Positions 16,401-59,874 of a stretch of 64,000 bases of DNA are shown here, piece by piece. Within the stretch, counting starts at the first letter, position 1. The number at the start of each line of letters is the position of its first letter. Source of the stretch: an uncultured Planctomycetia bacterium. GTDB taxonomy: Bacteria; Omnitrophota; Gorgyraeia; Tantalellales; Tantalellaceae. The notes under the pieces were generated by a model that searched no databases, was not told the DNA's origin, and was given only the letters and a program-made list of their open reading frames with translations. The position numbers were made by a program, and so were the translations under genes. The stretch is taken from positions 364,726 through 428,725 of the forward strand of contig CAYQUS010000001.1 of assembly GCA_964421015.1 (NCBI GenBank), read 5' to 3'.

Positions 16401-16443
16401 CCGCGGGGAGAGTGTATCCGAGCACCACAAACGATCCGCCGCC
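16401..16443. repeat. Conserved 43-bp intergenic element, copy 1 (39/43 identical to copy 2 at 31145-31187)
   Basis: ccgcggggagagtgtatccgagcaccacaaacgatccgccgcc. It lies 134 bp after the lptD-like stop and 218 bp before the ugd start. Confidence 0.7.
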
Positions 16444-16576
16444 CGGAAGGGATAAAAATAAGGACACCCCCTGAAGAATCTACTCCTGAAGTATAAAGAT
16501 AGCAGGCTGATCTTGAGGAGCGCAGGATACGCTCTCCCTTAGGTAATCGGTTAGTTCAAGCCGGCACAACCAGATA

Positions 16577-29894: not shown

Positions 29895-30953
29895 TTATCC
29901 GTCTATCTCCTCAAGTTTCGCGCTTATAAGGCTGGAAAGGCACCTTACTGTCCTTAGCGCCCTGTCATAATCCATCCTGGTAGGCCCCACAACTCCCATT
30001 CTCCCGGCGGCCTTACCCCTGAAAAAATAACCGCAGGTAACTATACTGCAGTCTTTTAGTATCTCGCTGCCGCACTCCTCGCCGATGTAAACCCTTACGT
30101 CTCCCGAAGAGAGATCTCTGGTGAGTATACCGGCAAGCTCGCTCTTCCTGTCCGAAAAAACGTGAAAAACCTTGCGTATGACGTTTATGTCCGAAAATTC
30201 CGGCTCATTCATGAAGTTGTCTATGCCTTCCATGTATATCTCGCTGTCCGCGTTATCGCTTACAATACCGTCCAGTACCTTCAGCGCCGTAAGAGCCGTT
30301 TCTCTGGCCTCTCCCCTGAGCTCACCGGAAACTTTATCCATGGCTGTCTTTATGTTCTCAGATATCCCCGATACAGGTTTTTCGGCGTGATTTTCGTTTA
30401 TGTACCTCGCCACCCTGCCAAGCTCATCCGAACTCATCTCTCTATCCAGCCTTATCAGGTGGTTTTTAACGGCATTGGTCATAGTAACAAGCACCGCCAG
30501 GGCCATCTGAGAACTCAATTTAATAAGTTCAAGATGCTTGAGGTAGAGATTGTCCACTCCGGGCCAAACCATCACTCCGGCATTGTGAAGTTCCCTGCTT
30601 ATAAGATACGTCGTCTTCTCTATGACGTCTTTTATGGTCTCTATCTTTCTCGTATACTCCTGCGCCAGCCGTTCAGCCTCTCTTTTGCGGTAGCTTATGT
30701 TCTCGGTCTTCATCGAGACATAACGCCTGTACCCTGCGGTTGTCGGGACACGTCCCGCCGAAGTATGCGGCTGCTCTATGAACCCCTGATGCTCGAGCTC
30801 TCCCATAACGTTCCTGATGGTAGCGCTTGAGACATTCCCTCCCATTTTCTCGGCCACTGTCTTAGAGCTCACCGGTACTGCGCTCGAAACATAAGCCTCA
30901 ACAATATGGGCTAGAACGATGTCTTTTCTGTGGTCTTTACGCAAATTGTCCAC
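29895..30953 (-). CDS. hrcA: Heat-inducible transcription repressor HrcA (GTG start)
   Basis: wHTH N-terminus, HrcA family, directly downstream of a CIRCE operator. Confidence 0.9.
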   Translation of the reverse strand: MDNLRKDHRKDIVLAHIVEAYVSSAVPVSSKTVAEKMGGNVSSATIRNVMGELEHQGFIEQPHTSAGRVPTTAGYRRYVSMKTENISYRKREAERLAQEYTRKIETIKDVIEKTTYLISRELHNAGVMVWPGVDNLYLKHLELIKLSSQMALAVLVTMTNAVKNHLIRLDREMSSDELGRVARYINENHAEKPVSGISENIKTAMDKVSGELRGEARETALTALKVLDGIVSDNADSEIYMEGIDNFMNEPEFSDINVIRKVFHVFSDRKSELAGILTRDLSSGDVRVYIGEECGSEILKDCSIVTCGYFFRGKAAGRMGVVGPTRMDYDRALRTVRCLSSLISAKLEEIDG

Positions 30954-31011: not shown

Positions 31012-31039
31012 ATTATATCATTGTCGATGTTTTTGTCAA
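31012..31039 (-). promoter_or_regulatory. Sigma70-type promoter of the hrcA-grpE-dnaK-dnaJ operon
   Basis: On the minus strand: TTGACA (31034-31039), 16 nt, TATAAT (31012-31017), immediately 5' of CIRCE. Confidence 0.7.
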
Positions 31040-31089: not shown

Positions 31090-31118
31090 GGTGACAGGCA
31101 CCAATGGTGCCTGTCACC
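31090..31118. repeat. REP-like palindrome GGTGACAGGCACC-aat-GGTGCCTGTCACC (perfect 13-bp arms); probable hflX terminator
   Basis: Seen directly; shares the 5' flank 'agacactttggtg' with the copy at 3117-3155. Confidence 0.8.
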
Positions 31119-32598: not shown

Positions 32599-33522
32599 TT
32601 AAGGCTTAAAACCCGCCTTTAAGGCTATATCCTGGGCTATCTTCTCCGTCGGCCGCTCGGCATCTATCCATTCTATCCCGTCTACAGACCTCAGCCATGT
32701 CATCTGGCGCTTGGCGTATTGCCGGGTCTTTATCTTCAATTCTTCCTTGGCTTGTTCAATGCTTATCTCTCCGAGAACATACTGTAAAACTTCACTGATC
32801 CCCAGGGCTTTCGACGCCGTTAAACTTACATCCCTTCCCATCAGGCTTTCTACTTCTTCGATAAGCCCGCCCGCGAACATCTCCTCCACTCTTTTGTCTA
32901 TCCGCCCGACAAGAACGTCTCTATTCACCTTCAAAGCGAAAAGTTTAACGTCATACTTGTCCGTAAGACCCTTGGTCTCGGTTTTCTTTTCCGAAAATGT
33001 TTTTCCTGTGAGTTTGAACACCTCGAGCGCCCTGATAACCCGGCGAATATTTTGAGGATCTATCTTCAAAGCGGCTTCCGGGTCTATTCTTTTAAGTTGT
33101 TCATAGATGAACATATACCCTTTTTCGGCGGCCTGTCTCTCCAACTGCGCGCGGAAGTCGCTGTCTTTGGGCGGCGACGGAAAAAGACCGTCTATCAGGG
33201 CCTTGGCGTAAAGCCCTGTACCTCCCGAAATAACCGGCGTCTTTCCCTCGAGTATAAGCCGGTCCACTATCCCGATGGCGGACTCGGCGAAAGATGCCGC
33301 GCTGAACTCCTCCAAGAGAGAGATGACACCCACAAGATGATGCCTTACCCTCTTCATAAGCTCAGGAGACGGAGCCTGGGTAAGTATTTCCATGCCGCTG
33401 TAAACCTGCATGGAATCACAGGATATTATCTCTCCGCCGGCTATCTCGGCAAAACGTACGGCAGTTTCGCTTTTCCCGCTGGCCGTCGGACCGAGTATAA
33501 AAATAACGGTGCGCGATGTCAT
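32599..33522 (-). CDS. miaA: tRNA dimethylallyltransferase
   Basis: 'VIFILGPTASGKSE' P-loop. Start trimmed to 33522 (MTSRT); its ATGA overlaps the RAYT stop. Confidence 0.9.
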   Translation of the reverse strand: MTSRTVIFILGPTASGKSETAVRFAEIAGGEIISCDSMQVYSGMEILTQAPSPELMKRVRHHLVGVISLLEEFSAASFAESAIGIVDRLILEGKTPVISGGTGLYAKALIDGLFPSPPKDSDFRAQLERQAAEKGYMFIYEQLKRIDPEAALKIDPQNIRRVIRALEVFKLTGKTFSEKKTETKGLTDKYDVKLFALKVNRDVLVGRIDKRVEEMFAGGLIEEVESLMGRDVSLTASKALGISEVLQYVLGEISIEQAKEELKIKTRQYAKRQMTWLRSVDGIEWIDAERPTEKIAQDIALKAGFKP

Positions 33523-34151
33523 ATATGTTTTTCCTTGCTGGGGGCAAGAAGGGACACGGCATGCCGTTCCCCCACTTCCCCCCATTTAACAGGGTTATTC
33601 ATGATATATTCACGAATTCGTGCAAGATCGGATCCGTCCCGGATAATATGTTCGTAATAATTGCGTTGCCAAAGGCACGTTCCGGATGTATTTTGGATTT
33701 CGTTTATTCGTTTTGTCACCGCGGATTTAAATGAACGCATGACCGTTGATAATGATCCGGATACCGGTTTCCCGAAACGTTCGATTTTTTCGTTACGACT
33801 TCCGTCCGATGTAGGGGCACTTCCGTCCGATGTAGGGGCACGGCATGCCGTGCCCCTACATGCATCATCAACACCATCGTTGGACAATTGATCGCCGCAT
33901 CCACCGATCATTATTATTCCATGTATGTGATCGGGCATGACAACATATTCGTCCAATTTGATATTTGAAAAATGTTCGGGAATTGCGCTCCAACATTGTT
34001 TGATGATATTACCATACACATTTAACACCATTTTGCCGTTGTTAACATCACCGAATATGCATTTGCCGTTGGCACACACCGTCACATAATACGCTCCTTC
34101 CCGGGTGTAATCGTATCCTTTTAAACGTATTGACCTGCGGCTACCCGTCAT
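33519..34151 (-). CDS. IS200-like HuH-Y1 transposase / REP-associated tyrosine transposase (RAYT) with an in-frame low-complexity insertion
   Basis: 'YYVTVCANGKCIFGDV', HuH motif 'VVMPDHIHGII', catalytic Tyr region 'WQRNYYEHIIRD'. Its start overlaps the miaB stop by 1 nt (TAATG) and its stop overlaps the miaA start (ATGA). It contains a 21-bp tandem duplication (33799-33840) and a 28-bp perfect palindrome (33832-33859). Confidence 0.7.
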   Translation of the reverse strand: MTGSRRSIRLKGYDYTREGAYYVTVCANGKCIFGDVNNGKMVLNVYGNIIKQCWSAIPEHFSNIKLDEYVVMPDHIHGIIMIGGCGDQLSNDGVDDACRGTACRAPTSDGSAPTSDGSRNEKIERFGKPVSGSLSTVMRSFKSAVTKRINEIQNTSGTCLWQRNYYEHIIRDGSDLARIREYIMNNPVKWGEVGERHAVSLLAPSKEKHI

Positions 34152-35521
34152 TACGATACAACTTCCCCCTTAAACGTATTCGGACTTGCGCCCGTGACTT
34201 GAACATTCACGATTTTCCCGATAAGATCTTCCCCTCCCGGAAAAACACAAGTAACGTTGCTTCTCGTCCTTCCCATCATCTCTTCTCCGGACATCCGGCT
34301 TTTGCCCTCGACCAGGACTTCCACCGTCCTTCCGATAAACTCTTTGTTTTTCTTAAGGGATATACTCCTCTGAAGGGCCAAAAGCTCGGTGTTACGCCTC
34401 TTTTTTTCCTCTTCCGGCACGTCATCCGCAAGACATGCCGACATTGCGGGGGGTCTTGGGGAATACTTGAATATAAAAGCGGCGTTATATCCTATTTCCT
34501 CGACCGCTTTTCTCGTAGCTTCGTAATCTCTTTCCTTTTCGGAAGGGAACCCCACTATGATATCGGTGCTAAGGCCGCCTTCCGGAACGGTCTTACGGTA
34601 ACTTTCCACTTTTTTTAGATAATCTTCATACTTATATTTCCTGTTCATAAGATCGAGTATCTTGTCTGACCCGGACTGAAGCGGAAGATGCAGGCTTTCG
34701 CATACCTTTCCGAGGTCTCTCATAGCCCTGAAAAGCGGCATACCGGCGTCCTTGGGGTGGCTCGTAACAAAACGTATGCGCTCTATGCCCCTAACCTTGT
34801 TGGCCGCCTCAAGTATATCCGGAAAAGTGGTATCGCTATTGAGCCTTTTACCGTAAGAGTTAACGTTCTGTCCCAAAAGAGTGACTTCTTTGCATCCCCT
34901 GTCCGCGAGAGCCCATATTTCCTCGAGTATGTCGCGTTTCGTGCGTGACACCTCCCTGCCCCTTACATGCGGCACAATGCAGTAGGAACAAAAATTGTCA
35001 CAGCCGTACATAATGTTGACAAAAGCCGAGAGCTCCCCTTTTGTATGCCCCGCTGAATCACCCTTGGCGGACTTGCGCTTACCTCCGAGAGCGGCCGAAC
35101 GCTCTCCGGCAATGGACTTCTCTATAAGTTCGGGAATGTCGTAAATATTTCCCGGCCCGCAGATAATATCCACCATGGGGTATTCTTTAAGCAGCATTTC
35201 CTTATGCCTCTCGGCCATGCATCCTACTACGCCTATCCTGAAATCCGGATCTTTCTTTCTACGGGAAGCCAGCTTGTGCAGGTTCCCCGTCACCCTGTCT
35301 TCGGCATGCTGACGGACACTGCACGTATTGAACAGCACAACACCGGCCTCATCCTCGTTATAGGTAAACTCATATCCCTTCCCGGCCAGAACTCCCGTAA
35401 TTATTTCTGAATCCCTGAAGTTCATTTGACATCCGAAGGTGCGCAAAAGTATACGCTTTCCATGACCCGGCTTGCCCTCGGATTTGCCTGTATTGGTGTC
35501 GTTTCGCTCTTTTTCTGCCAT
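34151..35521 (-). CDS. miaB: tRNA-i6A37 methylthiotransferase MiaB (radical SAM MTTase)
   Basis: 'RTFGCQMN' UPF0004 N-domain, 'CDNFCSYC' radical SAM motif, TRAM C-terminus. The N-terminal 23 aa overlap the recombinase 3' end; an internal TTG start (LRTFGCQMN) is possible. Confidence 0.85.
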   Translation of the reverse strand: MAEKERNDTNTGKSEGKPGHGKRILLRTFGCQMNFRDSEIITGVLAGKGYEFTYNEDEAGVVLFNTCSVRQHAEDRVTGNLHKLASRRKKDPDFRIGVVGCMAERHKEMLLKEYPMVDIICGPGNIYDIPELIEKSIAGERSAALGGKRKSAKGDSAGHTKGELSAFVNIMYGCDNFCSYCIVPHVRGREVSRTKRDILEEIWALADRGCKEVTLLGQNVNSYGKRLNSDTTFPDILEAANKVRGIERIRFVTSHPKDAGMPLFRAMRDLGKVCESLHLPLQSGSDKILDLMNRKYKYEDYLKKVESYRKTVPEGGLSTDIIVGFPSEKERDYEATRKAVEEIGYNAAFIFKYSPRPPAMSACLADDVPEEEKKRRNTELLALQRSISLKKNKEFIGRTVEVLVEGKSRMSGEEMMGRTRSNVTCVFPGGEDLIGKIVNVQVTGASPNTFKGEVVS

Positions 35522-37101
35522 TTTAACCCCTCTTCATAACACATTTTCCAAGGTTCGTTGATCTCGACCTTGACGATCTCTTTGTTTTGAATGTAAATGC
35601 CCTTAAAGATGATCCTCATGAACGTTTTGACGAGGTAATCCATCTTTTCACTGCTCGGATTGCTCCGTAGGCAAAGCAAAAAGTCCTGCGTTGCCTTGAC
35701 CAGATTCACCGCATTACGCTTTTCAAGGATCTTGATTTGAATCGACTTCACATCCTGACGAAGCTTCTTCTCCTCGTTTCTCAAAAGCTCGGCCCGATCC
35801 TTGTAGATATCAATATTGATCTTGTCCTCCGAGAAAACCTCGTAAAGTCCTTTTTGCTTCTCGATATTTCTGGCGAGATCCTTCTCTTTGCCTTCCAACT
35901 CTTCAATAATCTTATGCTCCGGCTCGGTCGCGCTAAGTTTAATGACGTCGCTCAATTCTTCGATAACATGCAAGTTTTTGCTGATGGTGTCAATGATGTC
36001 CCAAACTTGCTTAGTGAGAACGTCGGCGCGAACCGCCTTATTCGAGCAATTGACATACGACACGCCAAGCGCCGAGCACGCATACCACGGCCGCCTCATC
36101 TTTGTGCGATGATTGCATGTGATCATGAGCCCGCGGTAATTGCGGCCGCATTCATTGCATTTGACCACACCGGACAAGTGATACACATTATTCCGGAAAC
36201 GGACAACCGCATTCGTGCGGTTACGCGCTAAAAGCTTCTGCGCGGCATCGTACATCTCTTGCGTAACAATCGGCTCGTGGGCGTTGGGAACTTCGATCAC
36301 CTTTGACGGATCATTATTGACGTAGCAATACCCTTTGCCCTCGCCATTTTTTGTCTTGCGTTTCTTATCATAATGCCGCCGGTTCCACGTGATCGTGCCC
36401 AAGTAGACCTTGCTATGCAAAATATCTGAAATAAACTTGCCGTAAAACCTGCCACCTTGCCTCGCCGAAACTCCAAGATGATAATAATGCCCGGCGATCT
36501 GCGCGGTGCTCTTACCGCCTAAATATTGATCGTAAATATCTCTGACAATCTTTGCCTCTTCCGGATGAATCTCGAGCTTCTTGGTTTCTTTATTGTGACG
36601 ATAACCATACGGAGCAAAGCGAGCGCCTTGCCAATGCCCGCGCTTAACACCCATGACCATACCCGGGAATACGCGCTCAACCAGACGATTGCGCTCAAAC
36701 TCCGCGCAACTTCCAAGCATCTGGATAGCCATCTTACCTGCGCTGGATGTTGTGTCAAACGGCTCAGTCGCTGACTTATAGCCAATGCCAAGCGTCTCAA
36801 ATTCTTCCAGCAAGCCCAACAGGTCCTTGAGCCGCCTGCTCAAACGATCCTGTTTATACACCAAGACCAGATCGAACATCTTAATCCGCGCATCAAAAAG
36901 AAGCTTCTTGAGCGCCGGTCTGTCCATATTGCCGCCCGAGAAACCATCATCCATGTAAACATCCCGGCCGGACATACTGCAAACAACATCCCAGCCGAAG
37001 TTCTTCGCGTACTGCAACAGATAATTCCTCTGCACCTCCAGCGAAAAACCTTCCCGGGCTTGATCCTCTGTACTGACTCTCGTATATAGTGCGACTTTCA
37101 C
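35422..37101 (-). CDS. Large serine recombinase (resolvase/invertase N-domain plus recombinase and zinc-ribbon domains)
   Basis: 'MKVALYTRVSTEDQ' catalytic Ser; 559 aa; Cys-rich region 'CNECGRNYRGLMITCNHR'. Confidence 0.85.
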   Translation of the reverse strand: MKVALYTRVSTEDQAREGFSLEVQRNYLLQYAKNFGWDVVCSMSGRDVYMDDGFSGGNMDRPALKKLLFDARIKMFDLVLVYKQDRLSRRLKDLLGLLEEFETLGIGYKSATEPFDTTSSAGKMAIQMLGSCAEFERNRLVERVFPGMVMGVKRGHWQGARFAPYGYRHNKETKKLEIHPEEAKIVRDIYDQYLGGKSTAQIAGHYYHLGVSARQGGRFYGKFISDILHSKVYLGTITWNRRHYDKKRKTKNGEGKGYCYVNNDPSKVIEVPNAHEPIVTQEMYDAAQKLLARNRTNAVVRFRNNVYHLSGVVKCNECGRNYRGLMITCNHRTKMRRPWYACSALGVSYVNCSNKAVRADVLTKQVWDIIDTISKNLHVIEELSDVIKLSATEPEHKIIEELEGKEKDLARNIEKQKGLYEVFSEDKINIDIYKDRAELLRNEEKKLRQDVKSIQIKILEKRNAVNLVKATQDFLLCLRSNPSSEKMDYLVKTFMRIIFKGIYIQNKEIVKVEINEPWKMCYEEGLKWQKKSETTPIQANPRASRVMESVYFCAPSDVK

Positions 37102-37322
37102 TATTCTTCCTTTAGCGTCTCACGCCACTCTTTAATCTTGGCGATACACTCGTCCGTAAACACCGGCCAATCTTTGTAATCGCGCTTTGGCTTAACCCAG
37201 CCCTTGCGGATCCAATTGATCATGGTCTGCCGGTGAACGCCCAACATCTTTGCCGTCTCTGTCATGGTGTAAGTTTTCATTTTGGCATCCTCTAATGGTG
37301 CCCAGTATACCGTATTATACAA
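37101..37322 (-). CDS. Small HTH DNA-binding protein (excisionase/AlpA/MerR-like)
   Basis: 'MTETAKMLGVHRQTMINWIRKGWVKPKR' HTH_17-like; it overlaps the recombinase start. Confidence 0.6.
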   Translation of the reverse strand: MYNTVYWAPLEDAKMKTYTMTETAKMLGVHRQTMINWIRKGWVKPKRDYKDWPVFTDECIAKIKEWRETLKEE

Positions 37323-37333
37323 CCCTATACAAG

Positions 37334-37549
37334 CTATTTTATCTTCTCCACGTCATAGCAATTGATGAACATCCTCGACAATAGCTCAATCCCCTCATCA
37401 AACGATTTATGCGCCTCTTGGATTTCAGCACAAGACAAACCACGGCTTTTGAGCTTTATTTCTAAAGCCTCCCAGCCCCGCAGGGTAACCGCCTGATCCT
37501 TATTTGTGCTTGCATCCTTGTCCATTTTTCCTACTGCCCAATAGGACAT
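37334..37549 (-). CDS. Hypothetical 71-aa protein
   Basis: ORF only. The start codon is embedded in a GGACAT repeat/hairpin and no SD is visible, so it is doubtful. Confidence 0.25.
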   Translation of the reverse strand: MSYWAVGKMDKDASTNKDQAVTLRGWEALEIKLKSRGLSCAEIQEAHKSFDEGIELLSRMFINCYDVEKIK

Positions 37550-37763
37550 TCGGACATTTCAAATGTCCGGTTGTGTCCGGTTTTACTGACACACTGACAT
37601 GACTCGTGTCAGTGAATGTCAGTCAAAACACCCTCCAAAACCCATCAAATACCCAATAATTGACGCTTTTTCCGCAAAAAACGCCTATTTTGCGCCTTCT
37701 TGACCTCATTCTGACGCTCTCCCGATAACCCCATATGACATGACATCGCTTTTTGAAATTTTG

Positions 37764-37828
37764 TATCACTGACAGAGCGCGCCTCGCCCGACCCTCGGCC
37801 GACACCCCCTTCCAAGGACCCGCGAACC
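37764..37828. repeat. Direct repeat A (about 65 bp, roughly 80% identical to 57044-57106)
   Basis: Shared blocks tatcactg...cgcgcctcgcccgaccctc...ttccaaggaccc..gaacc. Confidence 0.7.
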
Positions 37829-37968
37829 GGCATCGAGCAACCAGTGACAACAATGACATTTTTTCTCACGGTTATCTTCTTACTTTCCACACTCAACCCC
37901 TTTGCTCCTTACTCTTAACCTACGAACACAATTAATGAAAATTCCTGTCATAATCGTCATAGCCGTCA

Positions 37969-40098
37969 CTAAAACGGCCGCTCCGAATAATCGACCTCAC
38001 CCTCCCTGCGGACGCGTATGCCGTCCCACCGGCGAGACGCGCCACAACGCCCCTTGTTAACCGAAGGATATTGACGCAACAACTCCCGGCCAAACATGAT
38101 CTTGCTAAGCGGCCGGTACTCACTCTCAAGACACCAGTCCCGATAAGCCACATACAAGGCGTCACTGCCCACATCCGCTTGAGCGTCTAAAACACATTGC
38201 TCCTCAACGAAAATAATGACGTTATTGTTCTCCTTGCGATAGGCGTCCTTCACGGTCTGCATGGACGCGCTCTCCTCAAAATACCCGCGCTTCCTTAATC
38301 GCGTAAGACCGTTAAGCGACCACAAGAAGATCCCGTCCAGCTCGCTGGCCACAATCTTGTGCTTTAGCTTGGGATCACGTTCCTCTATGGAAAACTGCCG
38401 ATTAAACGGAAGGATTAAAAGACGCCGGTAATACCCCTCGGTCTTATCCCCGACGCGCGGCATGTTATTGGTTGAGAAAAGAAGCTTGCAGTAAGGTTTG
38501 AATTGAAACGGTTGGCCGTATTTTTCGTCAGCGGAGATCGTATCGCCGGTCACGATCGCCTTAAACATATTGTCATAGACATTGGTCTTGGCATTGGTTT
38601 CAAGGCTGATATTGACTAATTTGTCCCGAAGCCGGGCGATGTAATGGGAATCGTTAAACTTCTCAAGCGGGATGGATGAACAATTGTCCTTGCCAATAAG
38701 CTCCTCAAGCACATACAAAACAACGCTCTTGCCGTTGGCCCCCTCGCCAAAGAGAAAAAGCGCCTTTTCATAATCATTGTCCCGGGTCAGGCAATAGCCG
38801 AAATACTCCTGCAAGAGCATGATCCGGGCCGCGTCGCTCTCAAAGATCTGATCCAGACTTTTCTGCCACAACAAACATTCGGCGTTCTCGCGGTATGTCA
38901 CATTTAGCTGATTAATGGAATAGACATCCGCCGAATGCGGCAAGAGCTTCATCTTGTCGATGTCATAAAGCCCGTTTTTGACATTAAAGAGCGTGATGCC
39001 ATTGATGATGTCCGGCTTAACAAAAGTCTCTGTCTTAAGCGCGACAAGAACATTGCGAAGCCTGCTTGCTGAAAAACCAGCCCCGCACGCGTCCTTGATC
39101 CACTTCTGCACCTCCTCGACAAACAGCGGCCGGTAACATCCGCCTTTGTATTCATAATAGGTATCAGCGAAGTTGATCAGCCGGTGATGCTTGAGAATCT
39201 CGTCAGCGATTTCATTGGCATTAACTTTTCGTGCGATAAGCAGACTTGGCCGCGACGGCGCATAGACTTCCCGGCAATCATTGACCGCTTTTTCGATGAC
39301 AGATTGTCCATATGTCCGGCCATCGCCAAAATGCTTCTCGTCCCACTTGGGCCGCATGAGTCCGGACTGGCGAAAGAGCGAATCCATCTGCCCGGCGTCC
39401 TTGCCCGTCCAGAAGGCCAGCTTATTGCATAACGCCAGATCCGCTTCGCTTTGAGAGGGATAATCGTTCTGCCACTGGCCGGAATAGAGCCGCTGAAACC
39501 TCTCCGCGTCTTTGCTTTTGGCGATCAAGGAAAGAATGTCGTCCGCGGGCACTTTATCTACATACCGGCCGAATATCTCTTTAAGCGCTTCGGTGCATTC
39601 ATTAAGCTCAGCCGGATAATTTTCAAGACGGTTGCCGGTAACGGTAAAGAATCGACCCTTCGTATAAATCTCCAAGCCGATCTTTGAAATCTTGCAGGCC
39701 CGGGCGATCTTGCCTTTACAAAGGATATGAACACCTGTGCCGCTTGGCGAATACTCGGAATATGAATTAAGCGCGCTTAAAATTTCTACCGCATACGGCG
39801 CGATCGCTCCGTCCTTGACGCAGTGGTCGATATCCACACCTACATACGGCGGCTGAAATACAAAGCCCACCCCCGCATACCCGCGCTGAAACGCAAGGTC
39901 GCTTGCAGTCGTATAATCCGTCCATGTCCTTGGATCGTTTGTTTTGGCAGGACGTCCGGTCAGGACGTTCATCGGGACCTTGTCGGTGCGGTCTTTATTT
40001 CGCCTGAGTTGATAACCAACCCAACAAGGCAATTTGAGCAATTCCTGAGGAATGACCTCTTCGATCTTTCTCTTCTCTTTTCTTCTCTCGTCTTCCAT
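37969..40098 (-). CDS. Bifunctional primase-polymerase (PrimPol) / D5_N / P4-family SF3 helicase replication protein
   Basis: 'VGFVFQPPYVGVDIDHC' Prim-Pol DxD motif; 'LFGEGANGKSV' P4/D5-type Walker A; 709 aa. Confidence 0.8.
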   Translation of the reverse strand: MEDERRKEKRKIEEVIPQELLKLPCWVGYQLRRNKDRTDKVPMNVLTGRPAKTNDPRTWTDYTTASDLAFQRGYAGVGFVFQPPYVGVDIDHCVKDGAIAPYAVEILSALNSYSEYSPSGTGVHILCKGKIARACKISKIGLEIYTKGRFFTVTGNRLENYPAELNECTEALKEIFGRYVDKVPADDILSLIAKSKDAERFQRLYSGQWQNDYPSQSEADLALCNKLAFWTGKDAGQMDSLFRQSGLMRPKWDEKHFGDGRTYGQSVIEKAVNDCREVYAPSRPSLLIARKVNANEIADEILKHHRLINFADTYYEYKGGCYRPLFVEEVQKWIKDACGAGFSASRLRNVLVALKTETFVKPDIINGITLFNVKNGLYDIDKMKLLPHSADVYSINQLNVTYRENAECLLWQKSLDQIFESDAARIMLLQEYFGYCLTRDNDYEKALFLFGEGANGKSVVLYVLEELIGKDNCSSIPLEKFNDSHYIARLRDKLVNISLETNAKTNVYDNMFKAIVTGDTISADEKYGQPFQFKPYCKLLFSTNNMPRVGDKTEGYYRRLLILPFNRQFSIEERDPKLKHKIVASELDGIFLWSLNGLTRLRKRGYFEESASMQTVKDAYRKENNNVIIFVEEQCVLDAQADVGSDALYVAYRDWCLESEYRPLSKIMFGRELLRQYPSVNKGRCGASRRWDGIRVRREGEVDYSERPF

Positions 40099-58312: not shown

Positions 58313-59104
58313 CTATAAAAGCTTTTTGGATCTAAAAACTTCCCTGACTATCTCTTTCGCCGTAATACCGTAAGGTTCTTCACCGCCGGTAATATTACAA
58401 GCAAAAACATATGTCGTATCGCCATGCTCGAGAAAACCTACGAACCAGCCCAGGTTCCATTCACCGTCCGGCCCCATACCGGATCCTGTCTTACCGTAAA
58501 GCGTGCCTTTATCGGTCTTCTCTACCAGCATGATATCACGCAGAATAGCGATATTCTTTCCGGAGAACGGAAGTTTGCCGTCCAAGAGCCTGTTCAAAAG
58601 AGCTACTTGCTCATACGCGGTGATCTTTATGGAAGTTGAATCCTGACGCGGAAGCCAAAAAATATCGACCCCTGCCGAAATATCCCTTGAACCATACCCG
58701 ATCCTTTCAATATACTCCATCATCCTTTCTTCGCCTATCTCCCGCGCCAGGGCCTGGTACGCAGGCACGGCCGACACCCGAAACGCCTCGCGCAGCGTTA
58801 GGTCCCGATTCCAACCCTCTATATCGCGCTTCACCCCATCCCATTTATACCAAGGCTTATCGGCTCCGTTTATAAGCCCGAGTTCAAGACCGATAAGGGT
58901 GTTGTAAATTTTGAATGTAGAGCATGGGGCAAGCTGCCGGGAGCTAAGCACCGGATCGATATCGGCCGTATCCCCCGACATCCGGTCATGTATAACTAAA
59001 GCCGCTTCATATCCGTTCAAAAGGGATCTATCTATCTGCTGAGAGAACGAAACCGGACTTATTAAAAAAATGAAAAGAAATGGTGTTATCTTGCCTATTT
59101 TCAT
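58313..59104 (-). CDS. Class D (OXA-like) beta-lactamase family protein / penicillin-binding transpeptidase-fold sensor domain, secreted
   Basis: Signal peptide; motifs S-T-F-K ('CSTFKI'), S-x-V ('SAVP'), K-T-G ('KTGSG') and W-x-x-G ('WFVG'). Confidence 0.6.
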   Translation of the reverse strand: MKIGKITPFLFIFLISPVSFSQQIDRSLLNGYEAALVIHDRMSGDTADIDPVLSSRQLAPCSTFKIYNTLIGLELGLINGADKPWYKWDGVKRDIEGWNRDLTLREAFRVSAVPAYQALAREIGEERMMEYIERIGYGSRDISAGVDIFWLPRQDSTSIKITAYEQVALLNRLLDGKLPFSGKNIAILRDIMLVEKTDKGTLYGKTGSGMGPDGEWNLGWFVGFLEHGDTTYVFACNITGGEEPYGITAKEIVREVFRSKKLL

Positions 59105-59874
59105 TTCTCCGCCACTACAAGCATCTCGAAGTCTTCCGTGGTCAGCTTGTCGTTCCTCGAAAAGGCCCCGAGCTTGGCGCCGAAAATGTCTATTTTCTTA
59201 AATCCCAGGGTTTTTAAAAGCCATGAGATCTCGCTTGGCACATAGTATCGCTCGTTACAGGCCAATTCCTTTTTAGTTCCCGCGTCGTCCTCGAACACGA
59301 CGGTGTTATGGTCCCGGAACGTCATAAGGTCAAAAGAACAATTCTTGCACGCCGAATTGCCTTCCTTGGCCGCGGACTCATAAAATTCCTTAACGGAATG
59401 AAAAAGCGGAAATAACCCGTTCAATGTCGTAAAGATGAACTTGCCTTTATCTTTTAAGGCTTTCGCGGCGTTCTTTAATATTTCAAAATTCATCTCATCT
59501 GTTTCCATTAAAGAAAACCCGCCCTCACAAAGCATGATAGCGAGGTCGAATTCACATCGGAAAGGAAGACTGCGGGCGTCCTGTACCTGAAAATCCACGG
59601 TAAGACCGTTTTCGAGAGCCTTTTCCCTCGCTCTTTTGATCTGGCTGGCGGAAAGATCGACACCGGTAACGCTATACCCTCTTCGCGACAGTTCTATGGC
59701 ATGACGCCCTGTGCCGCATCCTATATCGATGATCTTTGTAGGGCCACAGCACACTGTGCCCCTACGTATCTCATCTTCTATAAAATCGCACTCGCCCAGG
59801 GTTCCATGGACAAAACACTCATTGTCGTATTTACGGGCGTAATTCTCAAAAAGTTCCTCATACCATTGCTTCAT
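59101..59874 (-). CDS. Class I SAM-dependent methyltransferase
   Basis: 'IIDIGCGTGRHAIELSRRGYSVTGVDLS' motif I. Confidence 0.8.
   Translation of the reverse strand: MKQWYEELFENYARKYDNECFVHGTLGECDFIEDEIRRGTVCCGPTKIIDIGCGTGRHAIELSRRGYSVTGVDLSASQIKRAREKALENGLTVDFQVQDARSLPFRCEFDLAIMLCEGGFSLMETDEMNFEILKNAAKALKDKGKFIFTTLNGLFPLFHSVKEFYESAAKEGNSACKNCSFDLMTFRDHNTVVFEDDAGTKKELACNERYYVPSEISWLLKTLGFKKIDIFGAKLGAFSRNDKLTTEDFEMLVVAEK

Follow-up and report, generated by a model that had tools for sequence, protein, structure and literature searches.

The window considered here is a stretch of 64,000 nucleotides (64 kb) of contig CAYQUS010000001.1 (assembly GCA_964421015.1) from an uncultured bacterium of the phylum Omnitrophota, and its middle part holds, in the order in which they are read, the genes miaB, a gene for a REP-associated tyrosine transposase (RAYT or TnpAREP; REP, repetitive extragenic palindrome), miaA and hflX. 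The RAYT gene shares codons with both of its neighbours, as the initial annotation of this DNA had pointed out: on the coding strand the miaB stop codon (34153-34151) and the RAYT start codon (34151-34149) overlap in TAATG, and the miaA start codon (33522-33520) and the RAYT stop codon (33521-33519) overlap in ATGA, with a Shine-Dalgarno sequence, AAGGA, in the RAYT tail 9 nt before the miaA ATG. Judging from its sequence, this gene is an ordinary member of subclass 2.4 of the TnpAY1 proteins, for which a REP carried in frame within the transposase gene is a published hallmark. The division of the TnpAY1 proteins into subclasses was introduced by Quentin, Siguier, Chandler & Fichant 2018 (BMC Genomics 19:475, PMC6006769), and their subclass 2.4 equals RAYT group 4 of Bertels et al. 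2017 (PMC5581495). It is marked by a WQ motif, a YIxNNP motif, a HuH motif of the form NH[IFV]H and a variable insertion with short DNA repeats between strand β3 and helix αC; its genes have a median length of 194 aa and contain in-frame REPs between the HuH motif and the tyrosine, and its REPs are of the 'long' or 'double foot' type, with 5' GT[AG]G and 3' C[TC]AC feet (PMC6006769).

The RAYT protein scores 32.1 bits (E=1.4e-7) with the Pfam model Y1_Tnp (PF01797), above the gathering cutoff of 23, and has at least 8000 homologues. An alignment of 32 of them (A1), from which both the profile and the AlphaFold2 input were taken, matches one solved structure only, that of Escherichia coli TnpAREP (PDB: 4ER8; E = 1.2e-5), and the identification of a RAYT-type Y1 transposase is thereby upheld. 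In the profile-structure alignment VMPnHvHGi pairs with VLPEHMHCI, which supports the HuH motif earlier read as HIHGI(I), H75 and H77 being invariant in A1 and aligned with the HMH of 4ER8. The profile segment vWQrnYyEHiiR, represented in the window protein by LWQRNYYEHIIR, pairs with IWQPRFWEHAIR of 4ER8, which holds W94, Q95, E100, H101 and R104. In the E. coli enzyme these residues recognise the GTAG foot of the REP (PMC6006769), and the WQ and the downstream E-H..R are all present in the window protein. NYYEH, initially taken for the catalytic tyrosine motif, lies in this GTAG-recognition region, and by the same alignment the catalytic residue is Y182 of YIMNNP, since eYIvnNP pairs with DYIYINP, which contains Y115. 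Throughout A1 the residues H75, H77, G78, W161, Y182 and N186 are invariant, and Q162 is almost so. The insertion for which the initial annotation proposed a comparison with RAYT/TnpAREP sequences proves to be the β3-αC loop between HuH and WQ. AlphaFold2 assigns 10-residue blocks of the core a predicted local distance difference test score (pLDDT) of 84-97, and residues 83-133 a pLDDT of 46-63 with zero secondary structure, in agreement with the peripheral loop modelled in PMC6006769; loop length varies in A1, and the spacing from HuH to WQ ranges from 51 to 176 residues in the best 120 homologues. The open reading frame (ORF) is unbroken and keeps all catalytic residues, and it is the one Y1 gene in the 64-kb window, which is the scope within which its earlier description as a single-copy gene holds.

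The DNA that encodes this loop contains the 28-bp palindrome GTAGGGGCACGGCATGCCGTGCCCCTAC, whose perfect symmetry, already noticed in the initial annotation, extends over 32 nt (33830-33861). It has the anatomy of a double-foot REP, GTAG-GGGCACGG-CATG-CCGTGCCC-CTAC, with two feet, an 8-bp G+C stem and a CATG loop, all in frame with the transposase, and it folds into a stem of 14 bp with a 4-nt loop. The surrounding 101 nt have a folding energy of -39.1 kcal/mol as RNA (z -3.35) and of -21.2 as DNA (z -3.18). Because no T-run follows the stem, the hairpin is not terminator-like; scans of the operon for promoters and terminators gave consensus-level matches only, with no terminator-like site within the RAYT gene, and nothing meaningful came from Rfam, whether the locus was scanned in E-value mode or the whole window together with a sister-strain contig, L128, in gathering mode. 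In Table S1 of PMC6006769 the string GTAGGGGCACGGCATGCCGTGCCC(C), given for one subclass 2.4 entry (ACF44614.1), equals the 5' foot, stem and loop of the window REP, and the same table has sibling 28-nt double-foot REPs, for example GTAGGGGCACAGCGCGCTGTGCCCCTAC.

Partly overlapping the REP is an exact 21-bp tandem duplication, one base off the register first given for it, which is equivalent. Its unit on the coding strand, GCCCCTACATCGGACGGAAGT, consists of the 3' foot of the REP and 13 further nucleotides and encodes APTSDGS twice; in the inverted-repeat pairs I4 and I6 a single left arm can pair with either of two right arms. Comparable REP-adjacent repeats occur in the homologues P0008, P0028, P0046, P0104 and P0106, and the variation of loop length in these proteins stems from repeats in the DNA; the tandem repeats beside the REP may come from hairpin-promoted slippage or from the enzyme's own cutting and rejoining. 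The related core that had been noticed at 33553-33571 belongs to a second, decayed REP (GAAGGGACACGGCATGCCGTTCCCCCAC on the plus strand) with 4 mismatches to the 28-mer and a core, ACGGCATGCCGT, at 33556-33567; on the coding strand it has a GTGG foot and two stem mismatches, and it encodes the segment ..GEVGERHAVSLL.. of the C-terminal tail. A search with the 22-nt core of the REP, allowing up to 3 mismatches, found only these two sites in the 64 kb and 0 matches in 100 dinucleotide shuffles of the window. Homologous genes likewise have REPs that overlap start or stop codons, C-terminal tails derived from REPs, or REPs just outside the gene.

Table 1. Features of the RAYT gene and its immediate surroundings; positions are those of the window.
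Feature	Position	Strand	Basis
miaB, upstream neighbour, with its TAA overlapping the RAYT ATG	34151..35521	-	TIGR01574, 462 bits
Strain-specific cassette, 657 bp	33504..34160	-	BLAST of sister contigs against the window, junction alignments
RAYT/TnpAREP gene, 210 aa	33519..34151	-	ORF list, Pfam and NCBIfam scores, profile match to 4ER8
HuH motif H75-I76-H77, within PDHIHGI	33921..33929	-	alignment A1 and 4ER8 alignment
Variable disordered loop, residues 83-133, from HuH strand to helix αC	33753..33905	-	AlphaFold2, A1
Double-foot REP of 28 nt, read as (C)RGTACRAPT	33832..33859		repeat search, folding
Exact 2 x 21-bp tandem duplication, 100% identity	33798-33818 and 33819-33839		repeat search
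W161-Q162...E167-H168...R171 (WQRNYYEHIIR), predicted GTAG-foot recognition	33639..33671	-	4ER8 alignment
Y motif YIMNNP, predicted catalytic Tyr182	33591..33608	-	4ER8 alignment, A1
Decayed second REP, in C-terminal tail ..GERHAVS..	33548..33575		repeat and mismatch search
miaA, downstream gene; its ATG overlaps the RAYT TGA	32599..33522	-	TIGR00174, 274 bits, match from residue 6

The same palindrome stands at the same position in homologous genes, and it is translated there in more than one frame. The loops of A1 homologues show RGTACRAPT, which is the majority consensus, VGARHAVPL or MPCPY, and the annotations of such homologues name Latescibacteria, Candidatus Electrothrix, Blastocatellia, Chloroflexi and Thermosynechococcus; the literature on the REP nucleotide string and on these three peptides yielded no relevant paper. 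One frame of the palindrome, GTA GGG GCA CGG CAT GCC GTG CCC CTA, gives VGARHAVPL, a second, (GT) AGG GGC ACG GCA TGC CGT GCC CCT AC(N), gives RGTACRAPT, and the third begins with a TAG stop and is almost unused among the best 120 homologues, 97 of which carry a loop peptide matching a palindrome frame with at most one mismatch (65 RGTACRAPT, 30 VGARHAVPL and 2 MPCPY). The 28-mer is identical at 28/28 positions in eight further RAYT genes that were read at the level of DNA, nine with that of the window. Six of these read it in the RGTACRAPT frame, namely P0002 (L001, L002), P0007 (L003, L004), P0012 (Candidatus Electrothrix, L005), P0040 (L006, a metagenome-assembled genome, MAG, of Chloroflexi) and, from a DNA scan, the genes of L031 (Dehalococcoidia) and L086 (Anaerolineae); P0031 (L131) and P0045 (L132) read it as VGARHAVPL. 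The sole MPCPY gene whose DNA was read (L133) has a 29-nt variant, in which a single-base indel in the hairpin loop shifts the frame. The homologues sharing the loop 28-mer are about 55% identical and come from several phyla, and in seven codon-aligned RAYT genes, where identity averages 58% in amino acids, 63% in nucleotides and 42% at third codon positions, no run of at least 6 nt other than the 28-mer is invariant. On this comparison of sequences, what is conserved in the loop segment is its DNA, which is read in more than one frame; it is no protein module. The initial annotation had proposed that a REP was invading its own transposase gene while preserving the frame; an in-frame, translated REP it is, but not a fresh local invasion: those 97 homologues have a matching peptide in the same loop, and the REP came with the gene. 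The same annotation had named as the contrary outcome a segment shared by homologues as a structured domain: the sharing was found, the structure was not, given the low pLDDT and the different frames.

A search blind to the loop, run with the N-terminal 84 residues against 1.84 billion cluster representatives at E of at most 1e-3, returned 18,730 relatives. In the 44 full-length proteins among its best 150 matches the window palindrome is exact in one, a strict two-foot pattern occurs in 16, and most of the others have foot-derived peptides such as VGAIHELPL, VGATHASPL, VGAKNFSPL, VGAGLKPAPT and GRGNRAPT. Universality of the exact 28-mer in the family was rejected on this count, the other representatives having clade-specific palindromes. 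By the evidence of these sequences intragenic REPs are widespread across the family, with a palindrome particular to each clade, as co-evolution of RAYT and REP predicts; the exact 28-mer marks a clade at roughly 50% or more identity to the window protein, scattered over many phyla. As a separate observation, 106 of these best 150 representatives (P0241-P0390) have no WQ, and many stop soon after HuH or have tails that look out of frame, a pattern that suggests that the repeat-rich loop is a frequent site of frameshifts or of breaks in gene calls or assemblies.

Away from RAYT genes the palindrome is a genuine dispersed REP of other genomes. Its 20-nt core, GGNCACGGCATGCCGTGNCC, was found in at least 120 stretches of species-representative genomes, and among the matches listed the hosts include Acidobacteriota, Chloroflexota, Planctomycetota, Omnitrophota, Bacteroidota, Cyanobacteria, Gemmatimonadales, Nitrospirae, Verrucomicrobiia, Myxococcota, several Proteobacteria and one Methanosarcinales MAG. 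The same matches comprise 133 occurrences of the core, of which 125 have no RAYT in the fetched locus and most are single-foot; 19 perfect 28-mers lie outside RAYT ORFs, and three of the occurrences lie inside them. The perfect double-foot form is thus present in 2/3 intragenic as against 19/130 dispersed occurrences, a difference that is not significant (Fisher p = 0.065) and that comes from the sole foot-unbiased sample, which is too small. Phages were rejected as carriers: only three viral contigs have the 28-mer, and none of the three has a RAYT. The archaeal occurrence (L051 6044-6063), in which the double foot of the core is GTAAGGG...CCCCTAC, comes from a contig that binning assigned to a Methanosarcinales archaeon; it is an artefact of that binning or else a rare archaeal case of a bacterial-type GTAG REP. 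Within the window itself the one further hairpin with a GTAG foot is a variant, GTAGGGCCACAGCACACTGTGCCCCTAC, with a double foot GTAG...CTAC and 5 mismatches to the RAYT REP, at 59738-59765 in an ORF at 59101..59874 (-). It is in frame (RRGTVCCGPTK) in a gene for a class I S-adenosylmethionine (SAM)-dependent methyltransferase, just before the SAM-binding motif IIDIGCGTG, and compared with PDB 1WZN this segment shows no net length insertion.

Comparison with the sister-strain contigs L128 (NCBI GCA_029565455.1) and L127 (JGI metagenome) delimits the cassette in which the RAYT gene lies. It consists of the last three sense codons and the stop codon of miaB, the RAYT gene and a new set of first six miaA codons. 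Outside it the strains are closely alike, with L128 identical to the window at 99.6% over the miaB 3' end (34161-34397) and at 98.3% from 33503 downward (miaA on), and L127 at 98.8% from 33503 through hflX; inside it, the sister strain has an unrelated 313 bp in place of window positions 33504-34160. The best named MiaA relatives are all from Candidatus Omnitrophota, and two outgroup contigs, L129 and L130 (about 73% nucleotide identity), have miaB followed directly by miaA, with spacers of 110 bp and 55 bp and no RAYT, the order in L130 being miaB-miaA-hflX-hrcA-grpE-dnaK-dnaJ. Since the sister strain and both outgroups are without the gene, parsimony points to a recent gain, and the comparison of sequences makes it probable that one Candidatus Omnitrophota strain recently acquired the RAYT cassette between its miaB and miaA genes. 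The element of the sister strain (L128 239-551, L127 1-349) has about 230 bp internally and is bounded by the arms of a perfect 21-nt inverted repeat, AGGGGAACTTCCCTGTGTTTT ... AAAACACAGGGAAGTTCCCCT. Rfam has no match to it and the window no copy of it, and it may be an insert resembling a miniature inverted-repeat transposable element or a structured RNA. Two different insertions in one spacer suggest that the miaB-miaA spacer is a hot spot.

The junctions preserve traces of this arrival. The end of miaB, ..KGEVVS*, is ancestral-like, and miaA begins with MTSRTV-IFILGP in the window, MKNSGKQTIV-FILGP in the sister strain and MPDKKQTII-FILGP in L129; its new first codons imply that the old spacer and about 8-10 miaA codons were deleted when the cassette came, and the present start is supplied by the ATGA overlap. 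Illegitimate recombination, or an insertion followed by compaction, could account for the arrival. The cassette has a GC content of 45.7% (41.9% without the REP parts), with 49.7% in miaB and 48.6% in miaA-hflX, and its lower value is mildly consistent with a foreign origin.

We propose the following account of the locus. The 28-nt double-foot REP would be the cognate REP of the family, translated through where a disordered surface loop joins the HuH strand to helix αC, and the decayed 3' REP would have been absorbed into the C-terminal tail, making of the gene a compact REPtron. By analogy with the E. coli enzyme, the protein would bind the folded REP hairpin on single-stranded DNA, its WQ..EH..R motif reading the GTAG foot, and the REP would be cut and rejoined by means of a metal bound by His75 and His77 together with Tyr182. 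The cassette would have displaced the miaB-miaA spacer and the first miaA codons. Because its codons overlap those of both neighbours, the RAYT gene is probably translated by coupling; it would be transcribed from the promoter of the operon, with stop/start coupling to miaB and with miaA coupled in turn. The intragenic REP would be kept identical as the enzyme's own substrate, whether homogenised with the dispersed pool by concerted evolution or constrained in sequence by co-evolution, and we prefer to read it as a tolerated passenger and not as a feature of the protein.

To this reading as a whole, namely a subclass 2.4 RAYT with its own REP translated in the loop as a tolerated passenger and a cassette gained recently, we assign a probability of roughly 0.8, and several points weigh against it. 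The residue before HIH in the window protein is D (DHIH), the norm in subclasses 2.2 and 2.5 (PMC6006769) and the only feature that does not fit subclass 2.4; N74 is at least 90% conserved among close homologues. The NCBIfam model REP_Tyr_transpos (NF047646) gives 73.4 bits, below its cutoff of 80, with the loop splitting the match into two. Apart from the variant hairpin in the methyltransferase gene, the 64-kb window has no further copy of this REP. The inferred gain depends on parsimony, and the sister strain, given the different 313-bp element in the same place, may instead have lost or replaced a RAYT. Part of miaA appears to have been deleted on arrival and no 5' REP is recognisable, which is unlike a clean Y1 transposition. 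Finally, 28/28 identity across phyla exceeds what a hairpin structure alone would need, and leaves a selected, cis-acting role as the chief rival.

Under that rival, the intragenic REP would act either as an RNA hairpin on the translation or mRNA stability of the transposase and of miaA-hflX, or as a single-stranded DNA hairpin through which the RAYT regulates itself or is mobilised in cis. The constancy of the 28-mer in nine otherwise diverged genes, its fixed position in the protein across the clade, the strength of the hairpin and the evidently recent movement of the cassette all speak for it, and we regard it as rather unlikely. Against it stand, among the 133 listed occurrences, 19 perfect 28-mers that lie far from any RAYT; since dispersed copies are often equally perfect, the identity can derive from a shared REP pool. 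Moreover, other RAYT clades have different palindromes or a single foot in the loop and some members have no REP, the β3-αC loop has been modelled as peripheral and without effect on activity (PMC6006769), and the excess of perfect feet within genes falls short of significance. The more specific proposal that the 28-mer is a conserved cis-acting element of this clade, the enzyme's handle on its own gene for autoregulation or mobilisation, held constant base for base while codons drift and the frame changes, seems to us still less probable.

The remaining alternatives to a translated cognate REP fare much worse. A fresh invasion of a resident transposase gene by a REP of the window genome, with the frame kept by chance, might be thought of because the tandem duplication is exact and hence presumably recent, and because REPs can sit in coding sequence here, as in the methyltransferase gene; yet homologues from Desulfobacterota, Chloroflexota and several metagenomes have the identical 28-mer at this very place in the loop, no donor copy is found elsewhere in the 64 kb, and the sister strain lacks the whole gene together with the REP, so that gene and REP arrived together, all of which renders this idea highly improbable. 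It is about equally hard to credit an insertion sequence of the IS200/IS605 type, or an operon interrupted by a decaying pseudogene: the Pfam model bears the name 'Transposase IS200 like' and presence or absence at the level of strains resembles that of mobile elements, but the IS200 model NF033573 scores 18.9 bits against a cutoff of 55, the motif is Y...NP and not the Y...Q of IS200, no tnpB is adjacent, no second Y1 gene lies in the window, subterminal hairpins of the insertion-sequence type are absent at the gene, and the unbroken, catalytically complete ORF is codon-coupled on both sides. The least probable reading takes the majority consensus RGTACRAPT at face value and regards CRGTACRAPTSDGSAPTSDGS as a functional protein module, for instance a Cys-containing metal or DNA-contact motif; in 30 of the 120 best homologues, as checked in DNA, the same nucleotides are read as VGARHAVPL, a change of frame that destroys any motif, and AlphaFold2 gives no structure to a loop whose length and flanking repeats vary freely.

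As regards genomic context, a conserved miaB/miaA neighbourhood for this RAYT clade was rejected from the neighbourhoods of homologues: no MiaA or MiaB domains were found beside P0002 and P0007, and other homologues lie in unrelated contexts. The homologue P0031 (L131 1126-4462) is wedged, with codon overlaps of 1 nt and 11 nt, into a restriction-modification-like operon with the order N6_N4_Mtase, an unknown gene, RAYT and ResIII, so that the window is not alone in such tight operon embedding. In the Chloroflexi MAG a second Y1_Tnp gene, of 197 aa and different from the P0040 RAYT, lies 3.2 kb from it (L006 13794-14387, -), which indicates that multiple RAYT-type genes per genome occur in that group. 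At the 5' end of miaB in the window is a block resembling an integrative element (35422-40098, -), with a large serine recombinase (35422..37101; Resolvase, Recombinase, Zn_ribbon_recom), a small MerR/HTH_17 excisionase-like gene (37101..37322) and a primase-polymerase/D5-like helicase (37969..40098); the 3' end of the recombinase gene overlaps the miaB ORF by 100 nt, and the miaB start codon is uncertain for this reason. On the other side of the operon, a perfect sigma-70 consensus at 31012-31039 (-) (TTGACA, 16-nt spacer, TG, TATAAT; 12/12), about 58 nt before the hrcA start at 30953, is by its sequence probably the promoter of the heat-shock operon. The GGTGACAGGCACC family, which the initial annotation had considered together with the RAYT, proves unrelated to it. 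Its hairpins, GGTGACAGGCACC-N3-GGTGCCTGTCACC at 2339-2367 and 31090-31118, are intergenic, with a 13-bp stem, a 3-nt loop and no GTAG foot; one lies between hflX and hrcA, and one is kept in the sister strain (L127), which is without RAYT. From these sequences they are a separate repeat or terminator-like family. A 44-nt repeat of the window (16401-16444) has a match in L127 as well.

A practical consequence concerns annotation, in that RGTACRAPT, VGARHAVPL and MPCPY in proteins named 'hypothetical' or 'transposase' are translated REPs and not protein motifs. Three observations go beyond what is stated in the text of PMC6006769: 1) one 28-mer, read in different frames, is the sole invariant stretch of otherwise diverged genes; 2) this REP is dispersed across many phyla; 3) the recent, strain-specific arrival of a cassette in the miaB-miaA spacer re-created the start of miaA. 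Together they supply two small data points on how RAYT genes and REPs persist and spread, one being the exact REP shared across phyla and the other a strain-polymorphic cassette in a housekeeping operon. Neither overturns current views, and both render the hypothesis of a cis-acting element testable; if that hypothesis were true, it might account for the presence of a transposase gene that is supposed to be immobile and 'domesticated' in a strain-specific cassette of 657 bp, and the hairpin would also modulate downstream expression of miaA-hflX in this genome.

Set beside known systems, the window gene belongs to the same HuH/Y1 superfamily as TnpA of IS200/IS605, which acts on hairpins in single-stranded DNA, as the window protein may do by analogy, but the Y...Q motif, the many identical copies, the subterminal hairpins and the frequent tnpB of those elements have no counterpart in the 64-kb window. 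With the GTAG-tagged REPs surveyed by Di Nocera et al. 2013 (PMC3733652), which occur in Cyanobacteria, Chloroflexi and the Planctomycetes-Verrucomicrobia-Chlamydiae (PVC) group, the window REP shares the GTAG foot, a short G+C-rich hairpin and placement in coding regions; unlike them, it is not in that survey (0 matches to GGGGCA), which stresses replication and repair genes as hosts and not the RAYT gene itself. E. coli TnpAREP (4ER8), a member of subclass 2.2 and RAYT group 2, is similar in its HuH/Y1 fold, its W-Q, E-H and R residues, its Y..NP helix, its low copy number, to judge from the single Y1 gene of the 64-kb window, and its use of a GTAG-tagged REP as substrate, the last of these being extended to the window protein by analogy. 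The sequence relationship is nonetheless weak, and the E. coli enzyme has neither a β3-αC insertion nor an intragenic REP, its REPs being single-foot, with bulged stems, and flanking the gene (PMC6006769).

The closest likeness is to subclass 2.4 itself, in which insertions of this kind are treated as tolerated events (PMC6006769); that one exact 28-mer is shared across frames and phyla by genes only about 55% identical is not stated in the text of that paper. Apart from the DHIH form of its HuH motif, the window gene departs from the described members in its host phylum, Omnitrophota, and in its strain-polymorphic situation within a miaB-miaA-hflX operon, with codon overlaps on both sides. 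It agrees with them in the WQ and YIxNNP motifs, a length near the median, the β3-αC insertion and an in-frame double-foot REP between HuH and the tyrosine.

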